Positions 18,001-24,000 of a DNA stretch of 64,000 bases are shown here, piece after piece. Positions within the stretch are counted from its first letter, which is position 1. Each line of letters begins with the position of its first letter. Position numbers: made by a program. This DNA is from a virus (taxonomy: Duplodnaviria; Heunggongvirae; Uroviricota; Caudoviricetes), in the IMG/VR virus record IMGVR_UViG_2728369393_000007. One strand, 5' to 3'.

Positions 18001-21000
18001 GCTGGCGAAGCTGAAGTACCAGACAGCGCTGGGTGAGCTGAAAACCCTGACGGAGATGCAGAAGCAGGAACTGCTGCGTAACGCGGCCCTGATTGACCAG
18101 CAAAAAATCCGGGAACAGTTGCGATCCCGGGAAGAGACCCTGAAGAATGATAATGTGGCTGCGCGTGCATCAAATGAAGCCGAACTGCTGGGGTACGGGC
18201 AGGGAGAACGAGCCAGGGAACGCATGCGGGAGTTGCAGCAGATCCGCGACAGCTTCCGCCAGAAGGATGCGGACCTTCAGTCTCAGTATCAGACCGGGGA
18301 TATCAGTGAGGATTTTTACAGACAGGCACGGGCACAGAACGCGCAGTATCTGAGCGAACGCCTTAAGGACCAGGCAGCCTTTTATGCCGAATCGGATGTG
18401 CAGCGTGCGGACTGGCAGAAAGGGCTGCAGGAGGGATTCAGTAACTGGGTGGATAATGCGTCCGATTACGCCTCTCAGGCAGCACAGCTGGCGACTGAGG
18501 GGATTTCAGGACTGGTGAATAACATCACGGAGATGCTGAACGGAAACAAAGTGGAATGGCGCAACTGGGCCTCATCCGTACTGCAGGAAATCTCAAAAGT
18601 CCTTATGAATGCCGCGATTGTCAACGGGATCAAGACGGCGGCAAACGGTATGTCCGGTGCAGGAGGATTTCTTGGCAGCATTGGTGACTGGCTGGGCGGT
18701 GCGGTGGTCAATGCAAAAGGCGGCGTGTATACCTCGGCAAACCTGAGCGCGTACAGCAACAGCATTGTGGATACGCCCACGTACTTTGCGTTTGCAAAAG
18801 GGGCCGGGCTGATGGGGGAAGCCGGACCTGAAGCCATTATGCCCCTGACCCGGGCGGCGGATGGCTCGCTGGGCGTACGCGCCGTGGGCAGTATGAACGG
18901 CAGTGCTGGTCTGGTGTATTCCCCGGTCTACCACATCGCCATTCAGAATGACGGGGCTAACGGACAGATAGGGCCGGAGGCGGCAGGCAGTCTTGTGCAG
19001 CTGATTGACCAGCGGGTGCAGGCGGTGATGCTGTCCATGCGACGTGACGGAGGAATGCTGAGTGGCTGAGATAAAAACGCTGCATCTGGTCCCGCGTGAA
19101 GGGATGCAGGTGAGTGAGAAGCCGTCGGTGGTGAGGGTGCGGTTTGGTGACGGTTATGAACAGCGCCGCCCCACAGGGCTGAATCCTCAACTGAAGACGT
19201 TTCAGGCGGTGTTCCGGGTGACGGATGAGTCAACCCGGTGCTGGCTGGATGAATTTTTATCCTGGCATGGTGGTTACCGTGCCTTTTTATGGCGACCGCC
19301 GAAACATAACCGGATGGTCAGGGTGGTATGCCGTGAGTGGAGCGTCACGGATAACGTCCGGTACAGTGATTTCAGTTGTACGATTGAGCAGGTGGTGAAC
19401 TGATGCAGGACATTCATGAAGAAAGTCTGAACGAGTCGGTTAAATCAGAGCAGTCACCGCGGGTGGTGCTCTGGGAAATTGACCTGACGGTGCAGGGTGG
19501 TGAGCGGTATTTTTTCTGCAATGAGCTGAATGAAAAAGGGGAGCCGGTCACCTGGCAGGGGCGGAAGTACCAGGCATACCCGATTGACGGCAGTGGCTTT
19601 GAGATGAACGGGAAGGGCAGCAGTGCCAGACCGTCGATGACGGTGTCCAATCTGTTCGGTCTGGTCACCGGGATGGCGGAAGACCTGCAGAGTCTGGTGG
19701 GGGCCACGGTGGTCCGCCGCCGGGTGTATGCCCGTTTTCTGGATGCGGTGAATTTCGTTGCGGGCAATCCGGAGGCAGACCCGGAGCAGGAGCTGAGTGA
19801 CCGCTGGGTGGTGGAGCAGATGTCGCAGCTGACAGCCATGACGGCCTCGTTTGTGCTGGCCACACCGACCGAGACGGACGGAGCGCTGTTTCCCGGTCGC
19901 ATCATGCTGGCGAACACCTGTATGTGGGATTACCGGGGAGAGGAGTGCGGTTTCACCGGCGGGGCGGTGGCGGATGAGTTCGACAACCCCACCACGGATA
20001 TCCGGAAGGACAGATGCAGTAAATGCATGCGCGGGTGTGAGATGCGCGGCATGGTGGCTAATTTCGGCGGTTTCCTTTCCATTAATAAACTTTCGCAGTA
20101 AATCCCGTTTTATGACACAGACTGAATCAGCGATTCTGGCGCATGCCCGGCGGTGTGCGCCAGCGGAGTCGTGCGGCTTCGTGATAAGCACCCCGGAGGG
20201 CGAACGGTACCAGCCCTGTGTGAATGTCTCCGCAGAGCCGGAGGCGTATTTTCGTATTGCACCGGAAGACTGGCTGCGGGCAGAGATGCAGGGGGAGATT
20301 GTGGCACTGGTCCACAGTCATCCCGGTGGTCTGCCCTGGCTGAGCGAGGCCGACCGGCGGCTGCAGATAAAAAGTGCACTGTCCTGGTGGCTGGTCTGCC
20401 CGGGGGACATTCATAAATTCCGCTGTGTGCCACATCTGACAGGACGGCTCTTTGAGCACGGGGTGACGGACTGTTACACGCTGTTCCGGGATGCCTACCA
20501 TCTGGCGGGAATTGATATGCCGGATTTTGAGCGTGAGGATGACTGGTGGCGTAACGGTCAGAACCTTTACCTGGACAATATGGCGGTCACCGGCTTTTAC
20601 CGGGTGCCCCTGTCCTCTGCACAGGCGGGCGATATCCTGCTGTGCTGCTTTGGCGCATCGGTGGCCAATCATGCCGCCATTTACTGCGGCAACGGTGAAC
20701 TGCTTCACCATCTGCCTGAACAACTGAGTAAACGGGAGAGGTATTCCGAAAAATGGCAACGACGAACGCATTCAGCCTGGCGTCACCGCCACTGGCACGT
20801 ATCTGCCTTCACGGGGATTTACAACGATTTGGCCGCCGCCTCAGCCTGTACCCGAACACGGCGATTGTGGGGCTGCAGGTGGATGCGGAGCAGTTTGGCG
20901 GTCAGCAGATGACGGTGAACTACCATATCCGCGGTCGCATCATCCAGGTACCGTCAAACTATGACCCGGAAAAACGCACGTACAGCGGCATCTGGGACGG

Positions 21001-24000
21001 CAGCCTGAAACCGGCATACAGCAACAACCCGGCCTGGTGCCTGTGGGACATGCTGACTCACCCGCGCTACGGCATGGGAAAACGTCTGGTGGCGGCGGAT
21101 GTTGACAAGTGGGCGCTGTATGCCATCGGGCAGTACTGCGACCAGACGGTCCCGGATGGTTTCAGGGGCACAGAGCCGCGGATGACCTTTAATGCGTACC
21201 TGTCACAACAGCGTAAGGCGTGGGACGTTCTCAGTGATTTCTGCTCGGCGATGCGCTGTATGCCGGTATGGAACGGCCAGACGCTGACGTTCGTTCAGGA
21301 CCGCCCGTCGGATGTGGTGTGGCCGTACACCAACTGCGATGTGGTGGTGGATGATAACGGCGTGGGGTTTCGCTACAGCTTCAGCGCCCTGAAGGACCGC
21401 CACACGGCGGTGGAGGTGAATTACACCGACCCGCAGAACGGCTGGCAGACCTCCACTGAACTGGTGGAAGACCCGGAAGCCATACTGCGCTACGGACGCA
21501 ATCTGCTGAAGATGGATGCGTTCGGCTGTACCAGTCGCGGTCAGGCTCATCGTGCCGGACTGTGGGTGATAAAGACCGAACTGCTGGAAACGCAGACGGT
21601 GGATTTCACGCTCGGTCACAGGGGCTGCGTCACACACCCGGTGACATTATTGAAATCTGTGATAACGACTATGCCGGGACCATGACCGGCGGACGTATCC
21701 TGTCCATCGATGCCGCCAGCCGCACCCTGACACTGGACCGTGAGGTGACCCTGCCGGAGACAGGTGCCGCCACGGTGAACCTGATTAACGGCAGCGGTAA
21801 GCCGGTGAGCGTGGCCATCACTGCACACCCCGCGCCGGACCGGATACAGGTCAGCACCCTGCCTGATGGTGTGGAGACATACGGTGTATGGGGACTCTCC
21901 CTGCCGTCACTGCGTCGTCGCCTGTTCCGCTGTGTCTCCATCCGGGAAAACACGGACGGCACCTTTGCCATCACGGCGGTGCAGCACGTACCGGAAAAGG
22001 AAGCCATCGTGGATAACGGGGCCAGCTTTGAGCCGCAGTCAGGCACCCTGAACAGCGTCATCCCTCCGGCAGTGCAGCACCTGACGGTGGAGGTGAGCGC
22101 AGCTGACGGTCAGTATCTGGCGCAGGCGAAATGGGACACGCCGCGGGTGGTGAAGGGTGTGCGCTTCAGCCTGCGCCTGACCAGCGGAAGCGGAGAAGAC
22201 AGCCGTCTGGTGACCACCGCCATCACCGCGGATACAGAGCACCGTTTCAGCGGTCTGCCGCCGGGGAATACACCCTGACGGTCAGGGCGATTAACAGTTA
22301 TGGCCAGCAGGGCGAACCGGCCACCACCACGTTCAGGATTTACGCACCTGCGGCACCCGCCTCGATTGAGCTGACGCCGGGTATTTTCAGATAACGGCGG
22401 TCCCGCGTCTTGCGGTGTATGACCCGACGGTACAGTTTGAATTCTGGTTCTCAGAAAAACGCATCACGAACACGGCACAGGTGGAAACCTCTGCCCGTTA
22501 TCTGGGTAGCGGCAGTCAGTGGAGTGTATCCGGCCCGCACATTAAGCCCGGGAAGGATTTCTGGTTTTACGTGCGCAGCGTCAACCTGGTGGGGAAATCT
22601 GCGTTTGTGGAAGCCAGTGGCCGGGCCAGCAATGATGCAGAAGGGTATCTGGGGCTGTTTCGGGAAAAAATAGGAAAACTGCATCTGGCTCAGGGGCTGT
22701 GGGAGCTGATAGACAACAGCCAGCTTGCGGATGAGATGGCGGAGATGAAGACCACCATCACCGAAACCCGCAATGAAATCACACAGACGGTCAGTAAAAC
22801 GCTGGAAGACCAGAGCGCCACCATTCAGCAGATACAGCGCGTGCAGTCAGGCAGAAGAGAACGCTGCAAATGCTGACACTTCAGCAGGGGATGCATCGGA
22901 GTCAGCCCGGCAGGCGGCAGAAAGTGCAGCCTCAGCAAAGCAGTCAGAGGAGGCGTCCTCGTCCTCGGCCTCTGAGGCCGCTCAAAAAGCCAGTGAGTCA
23001 TCACAAAGTGCAGCAGAAGCTGAATTGTCAAGAAAGACGGCAGAAAGTGCAGCCGGTAATGCAGCCAGGGATGCAACGACCGCAGCAGAAAAAGCCCGGG
23101 AGTCAGCAGAAAGCGCACAGTCAGCGGAACAAAGCAGGATAGCGGCGGAAGAAGCCGTAAACAGAATCCCCACAGTGGTGGGGCCACCCGGGCCAAAGGG
23201 AGAACCGGGGCCCGCGGGTCCTCAGGGGCCGAAGGGAGATAAAGGAGAGCGGGGAGAGACCGGGCTGACAGGAAATGCAGGTCCACAGGGTCCAAAGGGA
23301 GATACCGGTGCGGCAGGCCCGGCAGGCCCACAGGGACCGAAAGGAGAAACAGGTGCGGCTGGCCCGGTGGGGGCAACCGGACCTCAGGGGCCGAAAGGCG
23401 ACCCGGGGGAGACACAAATACGGTTCCGTCTGGGGCCGGGAAACATTATTGAGACAAACAGCAATGGCTGGTTCCCGGATACAGATGGCGCACTCATCAC
23501 CGGACTGACCTTTCTTGACCCCAAAGATGCCACACGGGTTCAGGGTTTTTTTCAGCATTTGCAGGTCAGGTTTGGTGACGGGCCGTGGCAGGATGTCAAG
23601 GGGCTGGATGAAGTGGGCAGTGATACAGGCAGAACAGGAGAATGACATGAATATTTTGAGAAAGCTTATGGAGCGTCTGTGTGGTTGCGAAAAGCATGAT
23701 GACCGTGAAAACGGGGAGTTACTTACAGCACAACTGCGACTGGGACCGGCAGACATTCTGGAGTCCGATGAGAATGGCATTATCCCGGAGCAGGACAGGG
23801 TAATCACGCAGGTGGTGATACTGGATGCGGATAAAAAGCAGATACAGTGCGTGGTAAGACCGCTGCAAATCCTGCGTGCTGACGGGAGGTGGGAAAATAT
23901 TGGCGGAATGAAATAGCCGACAGCTTCACAAAACCGGAGTCCGGCTCCGGTTTTTGTTGTCATGTATAGGGGATATTTGTTATTAGAGTGTGAAGTAATA

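Follow-up and report, generated by a model that had tools for sequence, protein, structure and literature searches.

The DNA at 19403-23962 is very probably the decayed tail-tip module (M-L-K-I'-'J-'fibre-small gene) of a defective lambda-like prophage at ompW in Escherichia coli O145:H25, reduced by three deletions and an IS600 insertion. The window, meaning the whole stretch of 64,000 nucleotides that was analysed, matches CP014670.1 (E. coli O145:H25 CFSAN004177) on the reverse strand and spans the origin of that record. The decayed module (copy 1) belongs to prophage 1. The comparator module (copy 2) belongs to prophage 2, a Stx2a-type phage. Coordinates are collected in Table 1.

Table 1. 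Features of prophage 1 and of the nested prophage, with the BLAST blocks shared by the two modules (window coordinates)
Feature	Position	Strand	Remarks
Portal gene, 5' part, prophage 1	14473..16039	+	PF04860 Phage_portal, E 4.8e-81; cut by deletion J0
Deletion junction J0	16039..16040		Portal to tape-measure codon 79; 4,234 bp gone relative to L006; 2-bp microhomology TG
Tape-measure gene without first 78 codons	16040..19069	+	PF20155, PF06120, PF09718
Minor tail protein M, intact	19062..19403	+	PF05939, E 3e-28; 45% identical to Stx2a phage M
Minor tail protein L, intact, 232 aa	19403..20101	+	PF05100, E 1.1e-90
K (JAB + NlpC/P60 peptidase)	20112..20912	+	PF14464 + PF00877; residues 1-246 intact, then 20-residue foreign tail
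I'-'J fusion ORF	20753..22876	+	I residues 1-32, J residues 212-879, then 9 out-of-frame residues
Deletion junction J1	20849..20862		14-bp imperfect direct repeat TACCCGAACACGGC (11/14); J-side copy kept; 1,453 bp removed
Deletion junction J2	22844..22846		3-bp microhomology CAG; 2,016 bp removed (measured on L002; window 59411-61426)
Tail-fibre 3' two thirds, residues 140-404	22848..23645	+	Collagen-like Gly-X-Y tract; out of frame with J fragment
Small gene downstream of fibre (fibre C-terminal domain protein, 89 aa), intact	23647..23916	+	PF06820, E 3.1e-36; RefSeq CDS L001 24651-24920
attL of nested prophage	36404..36424	+	21-bp att site within prophage 1; 2 mismatches to motif
Integrase gene of nested prophage	36464-37750	minus	40 bp from attL
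CP014670.1 circular record origin	50761..50762		Mid methyltransferase gene joined to 3' end of major tail gene
Comparator module of nested Stx2a-type prophage	54532..62584	+	L, K, I, J, lom, fibre, small gene
BLAST block 1	19384-20862 ~ 54513-55977		93.0%
BLAST block 2	20849-22846 ~ 57410-59410		93.2%
BLAST block 3	22844-23263 ~ 61424-61842		94.0%
BLAST block 4	23241-23982 ~ 61910-62653		93.7%

Copy 1 (19384-23982) is colinear with copy 2 (54513-62653) at 93-94% identity in four BLAST blocks, all with E = 0 and far beyond chance. The preliminary description had put the identity from L to the small gene at about 95%; without gaps it is 93.7-94.3%. The pairwise alignment that it proposed, 19403-23962 against 54533-62630, was run and is colinear, with two internal segments absent from copy 1 essentially where they had been placed (1,453 bp and 2,016 bp on an error-free copy). 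The copy 1 breakpoints are identical against four more intact modules (L002, L005, L006, and L022). L006, L005, and JNE132847 are syntenic relatives that are intact and have every gene of the set. DNA-level similarity begins about 19 bp before L, which agrees with a shared module starting at this gene, but M and the tape measure are still homologous at the protein level. They had been called unrelated families; the M proteins are in fact 45% identical and both belong to PF05939, and the tape measures (26% protein identity) share PF09718 and the C-terminal ~400 aa.

At J1, I codons 1-32, starting from the ATG at 20753, are joined in frame to J. Both the frames and the alignment agree with the in-frame I-J fusion, with loss from I codon 33, that had been described. 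The J breakpoint is at codon 212 of 1159 and not near codon 355, a value that is not obtained with any J start; in copy 2, J starts with the ATG at 56779 and the breakpoint falls at 57410. The J1 sequence was compared against four references. The 9-bp microhomology proposed for this junction, GAACACGGC, is present, but it is the longest exact run of a 14-bp imperfect repeat, TA(TGT/CCC)GAACACGGC. The three mismatched bases of copy 1 are of the J-side type, which places the switch at the TA preceding the 9-mer. On a clean copy (L002 20265-21717) the deletion is 1,453 bp. It is only 1,446 bp in copy 2 (55966-57411), because copy 2 carries seven 1-base consensus deletions there.

The K stop codon TGA is also lost at J1 (TGTGA to CCCGA). 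Translation and the junction sequence confirm the suggested K read-through, which runs to a stop at 20910-20912. The K counterpart in CFSAN004176 is labelled 'missing C-terminus' by PGAP. The I'-'J ORF has 708 codons in clean assemblies. It is called as a 708-aa gene in L007 and is open in CFSAN004176 and GCA_003015365.1; in the window it is broken by three missing G bases (21613, 22262, and 22378). Three of the six J domains are kept (PF13550, PF24421, and PF24489), and the FNIII-A, Phage_Tail_Tip, and Ig_GpJ_C receptor-binding domains are lost.

The J2 deletion takes J codons 880-1159, lom, and fibre codons 1-139. The J fragment ends in ...IQQIQRVQ (J codon 879), and the fibre picks up at residue 140. 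The reported break in J and the loss of the J C-terminus, lom, and the fibre N-terminus are therefore correct, but the fibre is broken about one third into the gene and not in its middle. The copy 1 fibre is 98% identical to residues 140-404 of the L005 fibre. It is 86% identical to the copy 2 fibre with a 30-residue Gly-X-Y gap, which is not seen in the comparison with L005. This additional 30-codon difference from copy 2 is repeat-length variation in the Gly-X-Y tract. In the sister genome, RefSeq PGAP flags K, J, and the fibre of this region as partial pseudogenes. Neither the K read-through protein nor the 290-aa chimeric fibre ORF has an exact match among recorded products, probably because gene callers picked different start codons or passed over these ORFs.

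Upstream of L, prophage 1 contains a further deletion and an IS600 in terL, both absent from the preliminary description. The portal gene is colinear with L006 only as far as L006 position 18185, inside the L006 portal gene. Sequence similarity resumes in the tape-measure gene at L006 22420 (the L006 tape measure starts at 22184). The L006 segment missing at J0 holds the portal 3' end, head-tail connector, head closure, gp10-like, gp17, major tail, G, and T genes. A 1078-aa ORF from 15833 begins in portal-derived sequence and continues as tape measure. IS600 (9893-11157) splits the large terminase gene terL. It is ~5 kb from J0 and is the only IS nearby. The L protein is identical in four other assemblies.

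The module would once have been complete (L-K-I-J-lom-fibre), as it is in homologous prophages elsewhere. Three losses account for its present form: 4.2 kb from portal to tape measure, 1,453 bp from I codon 33 to J codon 211, and ~2.0 kb from J codon 880 to fibre codon 139. Joins at 2-3 bp of shared sequence, or at a 14-bp imperfect repeat in the I-J case, suggest replication slippage or illegitimate recombination. At each junction there is short direct homology with one copy kept, namely TG (J0), TA and the 9-mer (J1), and CAG (J2). No mobile element or site-specific recombination site was found at J0, J1, or J2, and phage gene sequence is joined directly. Homologous recombination between prophage tail modules was rejected as the cause of the deletions; the joined genes are non-homologous and share only 2-14 bp. 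The IS600 insertion also split terL, and a separately acquired Stx2a-type phage integrated inside prophage 1. The order of these events is likewise proposed. The common lambdoid tail-tip cassette of the two prophages is ~94% identical, with the kind of mosaic profile that lambdoid phages typically show after exchange.

Nakamura et al. 2021 (PLoS Pathog 17:e1009073, PMC8112680) gave the name PPompW to a defective lambda-like element found at ompW, and prophage 1 matches it. In their account PPompW is universally defective, its effector locus is exchangeable, and Stx2 phages use its 21-bp attB; two O145:H25 strains have a phage nested inside it. Prophage 1 shares the right-end set of type III effector genes (nleA, nleH1-2, nleF, nleG, and espM1; RefSeq annotation, near-identical sequence), followed directly by the 21-bp att site, which is filled by a phage with a matching integrase. 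It is similarly defective, with an IS insertion and deletions, and in the sister genome CFSAN004176 an ompW' flank lies past attR. No mention of the three deletions or the I'-'J fusion was found in the consulted passages of PMC8112680 or Lorenz et al. 2017. The homologous prophage in JNE132847 has the same effector locus and nested phage but, unlike prophage 1, still has the whole structural module.

The window ends short of both ompW flanks, and the ompW locus was assigned via CFSAN004176 and record mapping. In CFSAN004176, which has 0 substitutions relative to the window over 44.5 kb, ompW' and yciE come next after the attR of the nested phage. The two regions do not belong to adjacent prophages; prophage 2 is a Stx2a-type phage nested within prophage 1 at the 21-bp att site. 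The att motif, taken from PMC8112680, gave 0 matches in 100 shuffles. A matching attR is present in L004, with ompW' next to it, and at the yecE copy. The left arm of the nested prophage is identical to that of the yecE Stx2a phage. The nested prophage also encodes a phage helicase, and the same protein is carried by thousands of Stx phages.

The preliminary description regarded copy 1 as a paralogue, that is, a prophage 2 module duplicated in this genome that then diverged and lost segments. The two copies have the same gene order and 93-94% DNA identity from L to the small fibre gene, and both lie within one prophage cluster. However, the real duplicates known in this lineage, namely the nested Stx2a phage and its yecE counterpart, are 0-1 substitutions apart across 13-14 kb, while copies 1 and 2 differ by ~6%. 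Copy 2 is also not the closest relative of copy 1. OkiPb01707 is nearer in J (96.5%, against 93.7% to copy 2) and in the fibre (96.0%, against 94.3%), and L-K of copy 1 is 95.4% identical to strain 6817 and 93.9% to copy 2. Identity between the copies is mosaic (78-100% per 100 bp), and the low protein identity of the neighbouring M (45%) and tape measure (26%) places the modules in different phage backbones. An intragenomic duplication is thus very unlikely, and these comparisons point to homologues from separately acquired phages.

The lambda tail-tip module M-L-K-I-J-lom-stf-tfa has the same gene order on one strand; in copy 1, I, J, and the fibre are truncated and lom is missing. M, L, K, and I each match the lambda Pfam families, with I (PF06805) seen on the intact homologue only, because just 32 I codons remain in copy 1. 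The J protein of the intact homologue aligns with lambda gpJ (PDB 8IYK and 8XCG) over gpJ residues 1-836 (E = 0). Relative to lambda, copy 1 has I cut to 32 codons, J cut to residues 212-879, and a fibre without its first 139 residues. The gene set of prophage 1 is not assembly-competent, with J lacking residues 1-211 and 880-1159 and the major tail, G, T, and connector genes deleted. Given these deletions and the IS600 split, prophage 1 would make no head-tail connector, tail tube, or tail tip, and its remaining tail genes would be without function. They are best regarded as relics to which no function should be assigned.

This is ordinary prophage decay in an element type that has already been described, with genes already flagged as partial by RefSeq. 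The finding is of little import, as deletion-riddled lambdoid prophages that keep effectors are well documented in enterohaemorrhagic E. coli. E. coli O157 Sakai reportedly carries many lambdoid prophages with near-identical tail modules that still carry effector genes, and most Sakai prophages are said to have lost activity through deletions, frameshifts, and IS insertions that hit morphogenesis genes. The Sakai pool differs from the O145:H25 element in serotype and prophage. Defective O157 prophages reportedly also interact and borrow from one another, which would favour a co-opted remnant in which the 708-codon I'-'J ORF or the extended K serves the host or other prophages, as parts for helper phages or by interference with incoming lambdoid phages. 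Both M and L are complete, as is K up to residue 246, and the I'-'J ORF is open in CFSAN004176 and GCA_003015365.1. This open frame carries no weight as conservation or selection, however, because the isolates differ by 0 substitutions in 16.7 kb. I'-'J also lacks J residues 1-211, including FNIII-A, and the C-terminal fibre and receptor-binding domains, and co-option is very improbable.

The junctions recur in other assemblies of the O145:H25 lineage and are therefore real deletions. The J0 and J2 60-mers are each also present in L001, L007, L008, and L009, and the J1 60-mer is also present in L001, L007, and L009. Among 5,426 complete RefSeq E. coli genomes, J1 and J2 are each found in one. 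All three 60-mers occur in CFSAN004176 (2003/2004) and GCA_003015365.1. EN1I-0044-2 (2013 isolate, ST5309) has the J0 and J2 60-mers and supports only these two, because a 727-N scaffold gap covers J1. An assembly artefact, by collapse or chimerism of the genome's many similar lambdoid tail modules, is a very improbable origin of the deletions: the module query hit 15 sites in CFSAN004176, and the early PacBio RS II/HGAP3 assembly has clear consensus errors, three of them within the J fragment, but identical junction 60-mers occur in separately deposited assemblies, two from other named isolates, the junctions are ~28-35 kb from the record origin at low indel density, and the flanks are ~6% diverged from the other copy, so reads are not confusable.

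The concern about misassembly has no foundation in the case of copy 1. For copy 2, which adjoins the circularisation join of the record, it is warranted. Window positions 42277-50761 are the exact reverse complement of L024 (record 1-8485), and single-base indels cluster in a gradient around the record origin. The copy 2 homology block (54513-62653) contains 21 single-base consensus indels. Copy 2 spans a poorly assembled join and is unreliable as a comparator. Its frameshifts, and the three in copy 1, are consensus errors of the deposited sequence and not biology. In its clean equivalent, L002 18823-26895, all genes are intact.

In the literature, the nested Stx2a-type prophage of CFSAN004176 and CFSAN004177 is called a defective 'Stx2-like' prophage with a large deletion; stx2A is reportedly broken in one of these O145:H25 HUS-associated strains and stx2 is reportedly missing in the other. 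In both reference genomes the record origin falls exactly at this 'defective second Stx2 prophage', a side observation of some value to those working on Shiga-toxin phages, and toxin-gene copy number therefore needs re-examination from reads. The nested prophage may well be no truncated element but a second yecE Stx2a phage of full length, its middle having been lost when PacBio contig ends were joined inside a ~45-kb repeat. CFSAN004176 and CFSAN004177 would then each carry two complete stx2a phages.

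Window 11403-28101 is 100.000% identical over 16,699 bp to CP014670.1 (E. coli O145:H25 CFSAN004177, GCA_001721205.1), and window 42277-50761 is the exact reverse complement of positions 1-8485 of that record. The window thus reads CP014670.1 on its reverse strand and crosses the origin of the circular record. The sister strain CFSAN004176 (NZ_CP014583.1) differs from window 1-44494 by 0 substitutions and 12 indel events, 11 of which are a single G or C, mostly at short G/C runs. The remaining event is a 9-bp insertion in the window (GGGAAGCCG, 11490-11498) within the 3' portion of the terminase gene, and no other multi-base difference separates the two strains in 44.5 kb. 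According to the genome report (Lorenz et al. 2017, PMC5567499), both assemblies were made from PacBio RS II reads by HGAP3.

Positions of the deletion junctions and of landmarks in the two prophages.
Feature	Window position	Remark
IS600	9893-11157	interrupts the prophage 1 large terminase gene
J0	between 16039 and 16040	portal-tape measure deletion junction
J1	20849-20862	I-J deletion junction
J2	22844-22846	J-fibre deletion junction
21-bp att motif	36404-36424	2 mismatches to the motif of Nakamura et al. 2021
Prophage 2 integrase gene	36464-37750	40 bp from att motif
CP014670.1 record origin	between 50761 and 50762	

The region with the prophage 1 tail module (19384-23982; copy 1) aligns by BLAST with that of prophage 2 (54513-62653; copy 2) in four colinear blocks. 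Identity is 93.0-94.0% with gaps and 93.7-94.3% without gaps. Because copy 2 is rich in consensus errors, measurements were referred to L002, the yecE Stx2a prophage of CFSAN004176, which retains an undamaged L, K, I, J, lom, fibre and small gene. Three other strains provided further intact reference modules (L005, L006 and L022, the last from JNE132847). The deletion breakpoints are identical against every reference. DNA-level similarity of both modules starts approximately 19 bp upstream of L, and this point is a mosaic boundary. The preliminary description was correct that the shared module begins at L. It also assigned the upstream M and tape-measure genes to unrelated families, which does not hold. 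Between the two prophages, the M proteins share 45% identity and one Pfam family, the tape measures have a C-terminal domain in common, and both genes are diverged homologues.

The deletion at J1 is 1,453 bp long. The I side reads ...CAGCCTG TA TGT GAACACGGC AGCG, the J side reads ...CAGTGC TA CCC GAACACGGC GATT, and copy 1 reads ...CAGCCTG TA CCC GAACACGGC GATT. The deletion therefore lies between 14-bp imperfect direct repeats (11/14), of which the J-side copy was kept. The 9-mer first described as a 9 bp microhomology is present, but it is only the longest exact part of this repeat. The K stop codon sat within the three mismatched bases (TGTGA to CCCGA), which accounts for the K readthrough already described: residues 1-246 are kept and are followed by 20 foreign residues and a stop at 20910-20912. 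The genuine I start codon is the ATG at 20753, and in the intact homologue the PF06805 match of the long-form I begins at residue 16. I codons 1-32 continue in frame into J, in agreement with the proposed I-J fusion. The J breakpoint, previously placed at about codon 355, falls at residue 212 of 1159 in the protein alignment.

At J2, J ends with ...IQQIQRVQ (residue 879), followed by the shared triplet CAG and the fibre from residue 140. The J frame ends 9 codons past the join. This deletion, 2,016 bp relative to L002 and 1,989 bp relative to L005, takes out the J Phage_Tail_Tip and receptor-binding domains, lom and the fibre N-terminus, as had been reported for the J C-terminus, lom and the fibre. 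An extra 30-codon fibre difference relative to copy 2 is Gly-X-Y repeat-length variation and is not found between copy 1 and L005. In clean assemblies, the I'-'J ORF is unbroken and has 708 codons. In the window, it is broken by three missing G bases (21613, 22262 and 22378). These are consensus errors, because all three bases are present in CFSAN004176 and the three positions are the only gap columns relative to the intact L005 and L006 genes.

A third prophage 1 deletion (J0) is 4,234 bp long and connects the portal gene with codon 79 of the tape measure at a TG microhomology. In strain 6817, the DNA deleted here encodes the portal 3' end and the head-tail connector, head closure, gp10-like, gp17, major tail, G and T proteins. 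Listed by function, the loss covers connector, head-closure, tail-completion, major-tail, G and T genes. The IS600 that splits the large terminase gene is 99.9% identical to the strain 6817 copy. Both the J0 deletion and this IS600 are missing from the preliminary description. In the sister genome, PGAP annotates the portal-tape-measure fusion as a single 4.6-kb 'frameshifted portal protein'.

Among 5,426 complete RefSeq E. coli genomes, the J1 and J2 junctions occur in CFSAN004176 only. The 60-mers spanning J0, J1 and J2 are all present in GCA_003015365.1. EN1I-0044-2 (O145:H25, ST5309, isolated 2013) contains those of J0 and J2, and its J1 position is a 727-N scaffold gap. The recurrence of these 60-mers in other assemblies indicates that the deletions are real and fixed in this lineage, and it answers the concern about misassembly for copy 1. 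Junction homology is 2-3 bp, or 14 imperfect bases at J1, and a mobile element is present at none of the junctions. Such short homology without a mobile element would point to replication slippage or illegitimate recombination. At J1, a nascent strand may have re-annealed on the I-side repeat after copying the J-side one, which fits the J-side repeat being kept. With connector, tail-tube, I, J and fibre functions gone, prophage 1 is predicted to be unable to make tails. The leftover tail genes are treated as putative relics.

Copy 1 was initially taken to be a paralogue of copy 2. True duplicates in the O145:H25 lineage differ by 0-1 substitutions per 13-14 kb. Copy 1 and copy 2, in contrast, are approximately 6% divergent with a patchy profile (78-100% per 100 bp). 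Copy 1 is also nearer to the modules of other strains than to copy 2. The two copies are homologous cassettes of separately acquired lambdoid phages rather than products of duplication in this genome. Overall, the preliminary observation is largely right and its interpretation partly right.

The window fits the description of PPompW, a defective lambda-like prophage at ompW. In passages of Nakamura et al. 2021 (PMC8112680), the right end of PPompW is occupied by a type III effector locus, and the 21-bp attB used by Stx2 phages comes next. The same passages name two O145:H25 strains with a phage nested in PPompW, and CFSAN004176 as a carrier of a duplicated Stx2a phage. Similarly, the prophage 1 effector genes come after the fibre remnant in the annotation of a near-identical RefSeq sequence, and these are followed by the att motif. 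The prophages are not simply side by side, as the att motif adjoins the prophage 2 integrase. The sister genome has a matching attR, with ompW' and yciE beyond it. Prophage 2 thus sits inside prophage 1. Copy 1 is the decayed tail module of a defective prophage that carries effector genes, an ordinary element of a kind already described. JNE132847 has the same effector locus and nested phage, yet its structural module is intact. It illustrates the undeleted state of the ompW prophage and is a useful reference.

JNE132847 (NZ_AP028094.1, 1495000-1582000) is a complete Japanese genome. Its nested Stx2a prophage is full length (~48 kb) with intact stx2AB, and several late genes are marked frameshifted. 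Between the effector genes of prophage 1, there are extra fragments of the fibre C-terminal gene (24620-24753 and ~28126-28197), one of which abuts a degraded integrase (remnant ~27138-28132). These fragments resemble scars left by earlier prophage layers or by effector-locus exchange. At ~24857, the best-matching relative changes from OkiPb01707 to JNE132847.

The left arm of prophage 2 (36399-50762) matches the yecE Stx2a phage exactly, barring one substitution beyond the att core, a few single-base indels and a 906-bp inversion. Beyond the record origin, window 50762-64000 differs from the clean yecE copy by 1 substitution and 79 indel columns, nearly all of them a missing G or C. From 51-52 kb onward, indels per kb are 24, 13, 10, 9, 4, 6, 1, 3, 0, 0, 1 and 2. 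Their density is highest directly past the record origin and rises on its other side too. The copy 2 homology block holds 21 of these consensus errors, and because of them L, K, I and J of copy 2 look frameshifted. The concern about misassembly is therefore justified for copy 2, which is a compromised comparator.

The record origin falls within the nested Stx2a-type prophage, where the middle of a methyltransferase gene abuts the major tail gene at its 3' end, and stx2, the lysis genes and the head genes are left out. The CFSAN004176 join likewise coincides exactly with the record origin but connects other points (holin to mid tape measure), with indels clustered on both sides and no substitutions within the phage. 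The assembled arms are 14.4 and ~14.1 kb in CFSAN004177 and 19.9 and 12.3 kb in CFSAN004176, lengths judged to approximate the maximum reach of anchored reads from a 10-kb-insert RS II library. Prophage P01 of both strains is described as 'defective Stx2-like' in passages of Lorenz et al. 2017 (PMC5567499). It probably represents unclosed copies of a ~45-kb repeat rather than deleted prophages, although the optical-map validation described in those passages argues against this reading.

The 906-bp segment (48277-49182) is inverted relative to both CFSAN004176 Stx2a phage copies and JNE132847, with 100% identity. Its ends coincide exactly with an internal ATG and the TGA stop of the DUF968 gene. 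In the deposited record, it occupies positions 1580-2485, at a distance of ~1.6 kb from the contig end. Directly to its left are three single-base indels. The inversion is probably an assembly artefact.
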